Below, piece by piece: positions 28,789 through 34,204 of a stretch of DNA of 64,000 nucleotides. Under the pieces are notes generated by a model. That model was given only the letters and a program-made list of their open reading frames with translations. It did not search any database and was not told where the DNA came from. A program made the position numbers and the translations under genes. Position 1 is the stretch's first letter. Each line of letters opens with the position of its first letter. This DNA comes from Eledone cirrhosa (taxonomy: Eukaryota), in NCBI GenBank assembly GCA_964016885.1, contig OZ024741.1, forward strand, positions 353,152,001 to 353,216,000, given 5' to 3'.

Positions 28789-29494
28789 CAGTAACCATTA
28801 TTTAAATATTTTATCATTTATTTTCCATGTTTCACTATCTATTCAAGACATATATAATACATTCATTATTTCTTATTTCTGAGTTCAAATCCCGCCGAGG
28901 TTGACTTTGCCTTTCATCCTTACGGGATCGATAAAATAAAGTACCAGTAATACACTGGTTAATTGCTGGCCTTGTGCCTAAAGTGGAAACAATTATTTCT
29001 TATTTCTTTAGACTGTTATATTTTGTTTATATTTGAATAAGTTTCGGATTTTATTTATTTATTTATCTATTTATTTATTTATTTATATATTTATTTATTT
29101 ATTTATCTATTTATTTATACTTTTACTGTGTATTTGTTTCTGGCTTTGTTTCTCTATCTCGGTCTCTTATTTCACTATATTATTACTTCGTGATCTTATT
29201 TAGTTTTTCTTTTTTTTTTAAATGTTTCATTTATGCGTTATATACAGTTTATATATATATATGTATATATATATATATATATATATATATATATATATAT
29301 ATATATATATATATATATATATATATATATATATATATATATATATATATATATATATATATATTGTTATACTTTGGGAGGGTCATGTTGCCAATAAGAA
29401 ACACACGCACCAGTTGCCTTCACTTCAATTTATTATAAATTTATAAATTTCTGGTTGGTTGGTTGGTTCCACAACCAGATAGTTGTTTATATAT

Positions 29495-29539
29495 AGTCAT
29501 AGTTCTTTCGTCACACACTCTGTGACCTCTTCAGTGACT
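29495..29539 (-). ncRNA. Type I minimal hammerhead ribozyme (family 1)
   Basis: AGUCA-CUGAAGA-G-GUCACA.GAGUG.UGUGAC-GAAA-GAAC-UA-UGACU. Confidence 0.78.
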
Positions 29540-29739
29540 GGGGATTCCCTTCTTTGTTTCTGTGCCTCTCCTTTGTTCTGTCCTACGCCATTTTGTTTCT
29601 GTGTGTGTGTTGTGTGCTCAGTCTGCGCATGCGCCACATCCAGGTGTCTGTGTGTGTTTATGTTCATTTATTTATTTGTTTATTTACATGTTACTGGTTG
29701 GTTGTTTGTTCTATGTGTGTGTGTGTTTTCATTTTGTCC

Positions 29740-31089
29740 TTAATTGTAAGTTGTGATGTTGCTGTTCCACTCGTATTTTCTATTTAATTTTGGTTGTAAT
29801 TCTTTTATGTTTATTGCCTCTGTAATTTGTCTAAACATTGCGTCTTTTCTGTGTGTAGATTCTATTTTTATTTCTATGTTCTCTAATTTACCCTTGTGTT
29901 CTATCTTAGCATGTTGGTAGAGTACAGATGATTCTTTATTATCTTGAAGGTCTCGCCAGTGTTCATTTATCCGTTCCCCTACACTACGAGCTGTCTCACC
30001 TATGTACATTATATTTTTGTCTCTACATTGTCCTTCAGTACATCTTATGCTATACACTACATTTCTAGTTTTACAGTTAATATGGGGGCTTATTTTACAG
30101 GTTATACATTTCTTATCTATACATGAGGGTCTTTGAAAAGGGTGTGTCTTGCTAATAAGTGTTTTTACGGAGGTACCTGGTCTTTCTACTATCTTAATAT
30201 TGAGTTTATGTTTATTTAGGGCCCTTCTAAATGTGTAAGCTAATTCACCTCTAGGGGTTGTATTGATGAACATTAGACTCTGGTATTTATTGCTATCATA
30301 CCATGAGTTTATTCTATTAGCCTTGCTCCTAGTTCTTTCTATTCTATTCCAAAATTTGCTCCTATACAAGGGGCAGGTCCCATTTATGTCATTATTTACC
30401 ATTTTTTCCCATTTGGTTCTGGCTCCTCTATACACTCTGATTTTATCTCTCTGATTGTAGCCAGAGAACTGCATACGGTGGATGAAGTGTTGTATGTGTC
30501 TCTCTAGTTCTTCGGGGTTGCACATGCGGGACACATTTCTCATCACCCGTACCAAATCCTCAATCAGTATGTTGATTTTGGTATGGTCCGAAATGGCCGA
30601 GTTTCGGTGGATCAGATGTTTGGAAGTCATGGGTTTGGCATAATGGGAATGGAGGATTTGTTTTTTGTTGTTAATGGTATCTAACCAGAGCTCTGTGTCT
30701 AGTACAGGTAATCGATGGTTGGGGTGTTTACTTGGGTAGTCTATAGTAACTCTAATGCTCTGGTGGATGGAGTTTGCTATTTGCTGGATGCTTTCCATTG
30801 TGTTTTTCTCTAGTTCCTGACTGTTCTCTAGTGGGGGTGTCTTAACTACGATGTTTATATCATCTACGTAGCAGGAGTACATTATCAGGGTTAAGGGGTC
30901 TTCTAATTGTTCTTTAAGTTTAAGTTTAAGTCTACTGTCCCACCATACCATGAATAAGTTAGCTATGTCGCCTGCAATACTAACACCAATGGCTGCTCCT
31001 TCCTCTTGGGCATATGTTTTTCCATTAAATTTGAACATATGTTCCTTAAGGGTTAGTTTTATGCTGGCCCCTACCGCATGTGCAATCAT
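29740..31089 (-). pseudogene. Inverted duplicate of the RT C-terminal half + GIY-YIG
   Basis: Translation nearly identical to the last ~449 aa of 31078-33681; RYVDD changed to CYVDD. Confidence 0.9.
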
Positions 31090-33786: not shown

Positions 33787-33835
33787 GCGCATGCGCAGAC
33801 TGAGCACACAACACACACACAGAAACAAAATGGCG
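33787..33835 (+). promoter_or_regulatory. Candidate pLTR promoter: NRF1-like GCGCATGCGCA + YY1-like AAAATGGCG
   Basis: Motifs at 33787-33797 and 33827-33835, just upstream of the hammerhead; the YY1-like motif is kept in the diverged copy at 9799-9807. Confidence 0.4.
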
Positions 33836-33881
33836 TAGGACAGAACAAAGGAGAGGCACAGAAACAAAGAAAGGAATCCCC

Positions 33882-33926
33882 AGTCACTGAAGAGGTCACA
33901 GAGTGTGTGACGAAAGAACTATGACT
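33882..33926 (+). ncRNA. Type I minimal hammerhead ribozyme (family 1 3' UTR/pLTR)
   Basis: AGUCA-CUGAAGA-G-GUCACA.GAGUG.UGUGAC-GAAA-GAAC-UA-UGACU, about 200 nt after the stop codon. Confidence 0.78.
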
Positions 33927-34204
33927 ATATATAAACAACTATCTGGTTGTGGAACCAACCAACCAACCAGAAATTTATAAATTTATAAATTTATTATAAA
34001 TTTATTATAATAAATTGAAGTGAAGGCAACTGGTGCGTGTGTTTCTTATTGGCAACATGACCCTCCCAAAGTATAACAATATCGGTTTCAACACACGATT
34101 TCAGATAAAGAATCTTGCTAAACAAATTCAGAAACGAAATATATATATATATATATATATATATATATATATATAGAAGTGGTTACACAACAGTTAGTTC
34201 ATCA

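Follow-up and report, generated by a model that had tools for sequence, protein, structure and literature searches.

A high-copy, (TA)n-targeted Penelope-like element family of Eledone cirrhosa with hairpin insertions and an insertion between reverse transcriptase motifs A and B'

Described Penelope-like elements and the octopus locus

Penelope-like elements (PLEs) encode reverse transcriptases (RTs) that form the sister group of telomerase. Eight PLE clades are listed in a 2026 preprint (10.64898/2026.07.22.740005), and partial tandems, an adjoining inverted 5'-truncated copy, and a one-sided tail have all been described for PLEs (PMC8557442, PMC3846280). In the account of PMC8557442, an insertion in the RT fingers is reported only for PLEs with an N-terminal endonuclease and for some endonuclease-less Coprina elements; read by eye from Fig. 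S1 of that paper, the distance from motif A to motif B' is 57 to 60 residues in Penelope, Poseidon, two Nematis, and two Neptune sequences, about 81 in one Naiad, up to about 120 in Chlamys, and 110 to 149 in three telomerases. As to integration, self-priming with resolution by the endonuclease has been proposed (PMC3846280, PMC8557442), and for Poseidon a purified protein cuts both strands of the target and extends them, with synthesis beginning at two internal RNA positions between which the tail lies; in that in vitro system, no difference in start site was seen between strands, and the start sites were not homologous to the target (PMC11167929).

The window analyzed here (the whole stretch of 64,000 nucleotides of Eledone cirrhosa DNA) contains, within (TA)n, a 5'-truncated PLE whose own 3' end is repeated as an inverted 1.78-kb copy lying head-to-head with it. 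The main copy (31145-34138, +), truncated at 31145 as the first-pass annotation had it, retains about 3.0 kb of a ~4.08-kb unit and meets the inverted copy (29361-31144, -), which is equivalent to element positions 32277-34082 (+), at a junction with 1 nt of microhomology. The arms align over 1,784 bases with 7 substitutions and a single 22-nt indel at 33983-34004, a divergence of 0.39%, which bears out the near-identical inverted copy of the last ~1.8 kb that had been noticed; the two 3' ends do point outward into (TA)n, in tracts at 29250-29364 and 34139-34175. The inverted copy ends at an untailed site A and the main copy at a tailed site B, so a tail at one end only (the right) was correctly observed, although it measures 56 nt (34083-34138), and 58 only if the shared AT is counted. 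Partial tandems, the inverted copy, the one-sided tail, the minimal hammerhead, and the TA bias are all published PLE traits and not new; the partial tandems (pLTR), inverted 5'-truncated copy, and one-sided tail are as in EN+ PLEs, and novelty of the hairpin itself was rejected because inverted 5'-truncated PLE copies are already in print (PMC8557442, PMC3846280). The architecture of the family is thus known, and the new part, judging from the sequences, would be the RT insertion lineage described below.

The frame at 31057-33681 is open for 874 codons, or 867 counted from the first ATG, but that ATG and the first 22 of the 867 codons fall in the inverted arm. The element-derived part (31144-33681, +), which encodes the RT along with a C-terminal GIY-YIG, comprises 845 codons versus 1,318 from the ATG in a full-length copy. 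Of the "intact 867-codon RT+GIY-YIG frame" first recorded, the openness stands and the intactness does not: the N-terminal third is absent, and two 6-nt in-frame deletions are private to the window copy, neither being seen in other copies (0 of 31 and 0 of 25); one takes out the His of a His-Lys pair invariant in 57 aligned relatives. On the grounds of the missing third and the two deletions, we rejected an autonomous, intact window copy, which is probably dead. An uninterrupted 1,318-residue ORF was found within a tandem array elsewhere in the genome (L163:1120-5109, +); the N-terminal part of this ORF carries an Asn-rich low-complexity block like that reported for rotifer PLEs. Variants present in at least 4 copies were synonymous in 24 cases and nonsynonymous in 18, versus 135 and 310, plus 18 stops, among singletons, a pattern that points to selection on several source copies.

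Reverse transcriptase insertion and clade placement

That the element is a PLE was confirmed by its predicted fold. For the model of the window protein (pLDDT 92.8), the top 14 VIA rows of the fold search were telomerase RTs (best Z 14.8, rmsd 4.7, 291 aligned), and the C terminus matched the GIY-YIG domain of I-TevI (Z 10.1, rmsd 2.2, 88 aligned); a telomerase-related RT and a GIY-YIG endonuclease thus share one ORF, as in EN+ PLEs. The RT catalytic motif YVDD lies at 32551-32562 (+), and a short CX4CxxC linker with the endonuclease and its CCHH residues at 33295-33648 (+). Searches by sequence were less telling: Pfam gave only a sub-threshold RT match for the window protein, with GIY-YIG over the cut-off in one relative (P0097), a PDB sequence search of the window protein gave no match, and atlas searches returned generic or unnamed PLE-type clusters. 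Because the family falls below Pfam cut-offs, it can be overlooked in annotation even though the genome carries more than 14,000 of its insertion ends.

The distance from the motif A Asp to the motif B' Gln is 128 residues in the window protein (32029-32415, +). It was 117 to 153 residues in all 166 measurable relatives (of 267), and 126 to 132 in 101 of the first 120, versus 49 to 60 in the 93 measurable of 120 Nematis-like proteins and 58 to 60 in five Neptune-like, Nematis-like, and Poseidon-like stand-ins. In the alignment, the excess forms a single clean block, about 70 residues long (about 32140-32349, +), which sits where telomerase has its insertion-in-fingers domain and has residues conserved at 90 to 99% across relatives; its conserved motifs are C-P-x-R, G-x-x-P, and R-x-x-x-W. 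Named hosts of insertion-bearing relatives are an octopus, a sea cucumber, and a jellyfish; the profile search gave 2,636 clusters at E 1e-30 or better, and the best 150 of the 2,636 were examined. The insertion likely marks a widespread and undescribed animal lineage: in the mostly open-access literature searched, no description of a C-terminal-endonuclease PLE with this insertion was found, while Repbase, Dfam, and Fig. 8 of PMC8557442 could hold such families.

Telomerase RT is the best fold match, and its fingers insertion occupies the same position at a similar length (110 to 149 residues from A to B' in the three references, by eye), but no sequence similarity to the insert was detected. 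The insert is predicted to consist of short helices and loops, so in these models its likeness to telomerase appears limited to position and size; the region folded alone gave a low-confidence model (pLDDT 42). On the model of the telomerase fingers insertion, the insertion, in which conserved Arg, Pro, and Trp are plentiful, might help to hold template or primer, and it was probably gained independently of telomerase's. A C-terminal-endonuclease lineage with a telomerase-sized insertion alters the count of module gains and losses, and it offers a simple system in which to test the function of the insertion.

Set against the described features of the named clades tested, the lineage fails those of every one. 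It resembles Nematis (PMC8557442) in its C-terminal GIY-YIG with CCHH, short CX2-5CxxC linker, and similar thumb and linker motifs, yet Nematis has 60 residues from A to B' where the window RT has 128, motif B' reads GLAMG with DKG/DKR in Nematis and GAAIG/GGxIG with DKS in the window lineage, and core identity of the lineage to the Nematis-like stand-ins is only about 23%. Like Naiad and Chlamys (PMC8557442), it has an insertion that lies between RT3(A) and RT4(B), prefers (TA)n, forms tandem or inverted insertions tailed on one side, reaches very high copy numbers, and occurs in octopus; their endonuclease, however, is N-terminal, whereas it is C-terminal in the window and full-length copies, and Naiad is described there with no canonical hammerheads and an insertion of about 20 residues, unlike the hammerhead motif and about 70 residues of the window lineage. 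The Hydra clade (PMC8557442) also has a C-terminal endonuclease and a hammerhead, targets (TA)n, and shows KDHK in RT1 and an N-terminal RW pair, but as described it has no CCHH and no insertion, carries a CxCX5C linker and GSxDGAE at RT4, and is under 3 kb long; Hydra-like core identity to the window lineage is 17%. Neptune differs in a long spacer after the linker finger and a canonical RT3-RT4 length, and was separate from the window lineage in all trees. Penelope/Poseidon also has the canonical RT3-RT4 length and has no linker Zn-finger, which is present in the window lineage.

The first-pass suggestion that the RT might not fit the classic clades is therefore supported, although the strongest diagnostic, the ~70-residue insertion, had gone unmentioned and a derived position inside Nematis is a serious alternative. 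With the insertion columns removed, insertion-bearing RTs formed one long-stemmed clade in all three trees (support 86, 97 SH-aLRT, and 100/100), so the phylogenetic check upheld a single lineage but not a fixed position, which shifted with model and sampling. Two quick 56-row trees (8 of 64 chosen rows dropped for want of a motif pick; 321 of 661 columns kept) placed the lineage outside Nematis+Neptune+Poseidon (SH-aLRT 82 to 83), whereas the careful 30-row tree under LG+G4 nested it in the Nematis-like set, at a bootstrap of 45 to 54, and the union was not rejected. Clade labels in these trees are motif-based assignments, stand-ins rather than curated references, with Poseidon as one row only and without Naiad, Chlamys, Athena, Coprina, or telomerase; a search for a Naiad reference with a degenerate motif gave 21 matches versus 54 for its control, which is chance level.

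There is close to an even chance that the lineage belongs within Nematis as a derived and rapidly evolving branch, or is already deposited in Repbase or Dfam under generic Penelope names. The 30-row nesting speaks for it, as does an endonuclease of Nematis type (by eye against Figs. S2 and S7 of PMC8557442), with the short CX2-5CxxC linker finger in 84 of 89 listed relatives and CCHH in 81 of 89, and so does mean core identity, which is highest to the Nematis-like set (22.7%, versus 21.5% to Neptune-like and Poseidon-like sequences). Against it stand the low bootstrap of that nesting, the 56-row topology, the greater identity of Nematis-like proteins to Poseidon-like and Neptune-like ones (26 to 28%) than to the insertion lineage, and the absence of the insertion from the Nematis references shown in PMC8557442 and from all 93 measured Nematis-like proteins. 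The sequences show a distinct lineage, whose rank may be that of a new clade or of a derived Nematis branch. The most far-reaching reading, a ninth deep PLE clade in at least three animal phyla that combines a C-terminal GIY-YIG with a telomerase-sized RT fingers insertion and whose octopus hairpins, in the thousands, record asymmetric two-ended priming with one RNA start site per target strand, is tentative and falls somewhat short of an even chance.

Ends, target, and formation of the hairpin

The family is large and young (window arms 0.39% apart), and the claim of a recently active, TA-targeted family holds: in the 3.0-Gb genome, the best 40 DNA matches to each element end were 95 to 99% identical, while the closest named protein to the window ORF, from Octopus vulgaris, was 69% identical. 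The ~4,075-bp unit is found in partial tandems and has two fixed 3' ends, untailed A and tailed B, 56 nt apart, both of which read AATATCG in the element. Since the ORF begins inside the terminal repeat (start codon at 34057; 34057-34082, +, through to end site A), the 56-nt tail is coding sequence of the next tandem unit. Exact junctions with TA numbered 14,086 genome-wide for end A and 12,186 for end B, with read-through at B in 475 cases; the same patterns read backwards gave 0 matches, so these counts are not due to chance. TA repeats followed 59 of 60 A or B termini, versus a background of 5.6 to 7.1%, in 40 stretches chosen by element similarity (which also held 4 ends elsewhere and 12 read-throughs), and other copies thus share the (TA)n bias. 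If the rate from a separate octopus study is applied (JC 0.09 for 25 My; PMC13282606), the window insertion would be very roughly half a million years old, a figure that is less reliable if the arms were converted. An older hairpin insertion of the same family, with both ends in (TA)n, occupies 7921-8835 and consists of a longer untailed arm (7921-8511, -) and a shorter tailed arm (8514-8828, +).

Hairpins in this genome as a rule pair one end of each kind. Among 45 outward-facing end pairs (less than 9 kb apart, in the first 36.6 Mb of contig C1, where 90 of 187 listed ends were paired), 39 were AB, 3 AA, and 3 BB, with 22.4 AB pairs expected (p 2e-7). Likewise, 48 stretches, a sample partly picked with a query containing end B, held 23 head-to-head composites, of which 19 were AB, 2 BB, and 2 other. 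That the window inversion is an assembly fold-back artefact is very improbable and was rejected: a search for public records spanning the junction saw none, in what was an uninformative search, but the window arms differ at 7 sites, split 4 and 3, as well as by the indel and in their ends, and the 23 composites have distinct junctions.

Comparison of arm lengths across other copies showed that either arm, tailed or untailed, can be the longer: of 17 unequal AB hairpins, 7 had the untailed arm extending further 5'. Neither arm of those 7 can be a copy of the other, so two primings explain them most simply. We therefore regard the window as a damaged, 5'-truncated insertion of a high-copy, (TA)n-targeted PLE with a ~70-residue RT insertion, the hairpin of which probably arose from two separate primings, one per cut TA strand. 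Under such a scheme, the endonuclease would nick both strands of (TA)n; the RT would use one nick to begin synthesis at internal RNA site A and the other nick to begin it at site B, and at these sites, both reading AATATCG, a TA primer could pair with the template; and the two cDNAs, each ending prematurely, would then be joined head-to-head by way of microhomology of a few bases.

Several observations weigh against two primings. The window arms share 7 rare variants (at 5% or less among other copies), and the two arms resembled one another more than they did the median other copy in 18 of 19 hairpins, and more than the nearest copy in 10 of 19 (one locus being present twice), which requires either one source RNA or later conversion; copying of one arm, or gene conversion, fits these data as well as one source RNA does. 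In two hairpins the 5' ends lie no more than 5 nt apart, the outcome expected of fold-back. An alternative is one priming only, after which the product folds back or primes itself (the antisense template proposed in print being one version) and loses one tail when the endonuclease resolves the intermediate. It would draw on the rare variants common to both window arms, on the existence of near-perfect palindromic junctions, and on the proposals of PMC3846280 and PMC8557442. We consider it unlikely, since simple copy-back cannot give the longer untailed and shorter tailed arms of the 7 unequal hairpins and since, for Poseidon in vitro, the tail is the interval between two RT start sites (PMC11167929).

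The reading by two primings has a published parallel in the Anolis Poseidon PAc (PMC11167929), which likewise has its ORF start in the terminal repeat, a tail between two internal start sites, an AT-rich target, and a hammerhead, although it belongs to another clade, without linker or insertion. Poseidon in vitro shows no start-site asymmetry between strands, whereas the genomic hairpins here pair one A with one B, and by analogy this may count against strand-specific start sites. The rule of one tailed and one untailed end gives a signature, countable in genomes, for the second-strand step in PLE integration, which is still unsolved.

Hammerhead motifs and neighboring elements

In minimal PLE hammerheads, stem I is short, stem II is long and preceded by an unpaired base, and opposite-strand pairs also occur (PMC4209133). 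A hammerhead-type motif about 200 nt after the stop was indeed found in each arm, as predicted minimal type I motifs at 33882-33926 (+, predicted cut after 33921) and 29495-29539 (-). The motif at 33882-33926 would form a 5-bp stem I, a CUGAAGA core with one unpaired G, a 6-bp stem II, and a 2-bp stem III, so that sequence and predicted structure give a minimal motif in the pLTR with the architecture of PMC4209133. An Rfam search of the window gave no hammerhead match, and the folding energy of the motif was no better than that of shuffles (z -1.0). Across 70 copies, core letters varied at 6 of 770 positions versus 132 of 6,954 in the flanks; four pairs were changed on both sides, in four distinct sequences only and with 6 of 500 shuffles as high, so covariation support for the pairing is weak. 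The double hammerhead was rejected as a novelty, opposite-strand pairs of minimal hammerheads being already in print (PMC4209133). Because its two motifs lie on opposite strands, the window insertion cannot yield the tandem same-strand pair needed for dimeric cleavage. The hammerhead may serve to trim tandem transcripts or may be dispensable, as that of Poseidon was in vitro (PMC11167929).

Further elements were observed in the window and genome. A diverged sister family is represented at 9790-10090 (+) by its 3' end, which has the same site-A ending and carries a hammerhead with compensatory changes in stem II; another hammerhead-like motif, canonical in shape and possibly retrozyme-like, lies at 9570-9625 (+). 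A short stub in the right TA tract (34176-34270), with a 30-bp palindrome and a minus-strand minimal-hammerhead-like motif, probably belongs to another PLE family, and an 18-nt sequence found once per strand in the window flanks the whole insertion in inverted orientation (29222-29245 and 34281-34303). Elsewhere in the Eledone cirrhosa genome, the site-B junction is repeated 12 times at 46-bp spacing (G000:C1:132947049-132947579), and Neptune-like, Nematis-like, and Hydra-like PLEs without the insertion were found together with a decayed sister family at 74% identity (L121, L123, L124, L131, L135, L083:3-1001, L076:6711-7900). The window contains another hairpin at 52809-57933, with 878-bp arms scored as 100% complementary; its 660-codon frame shows RT motifs of Hydra type.
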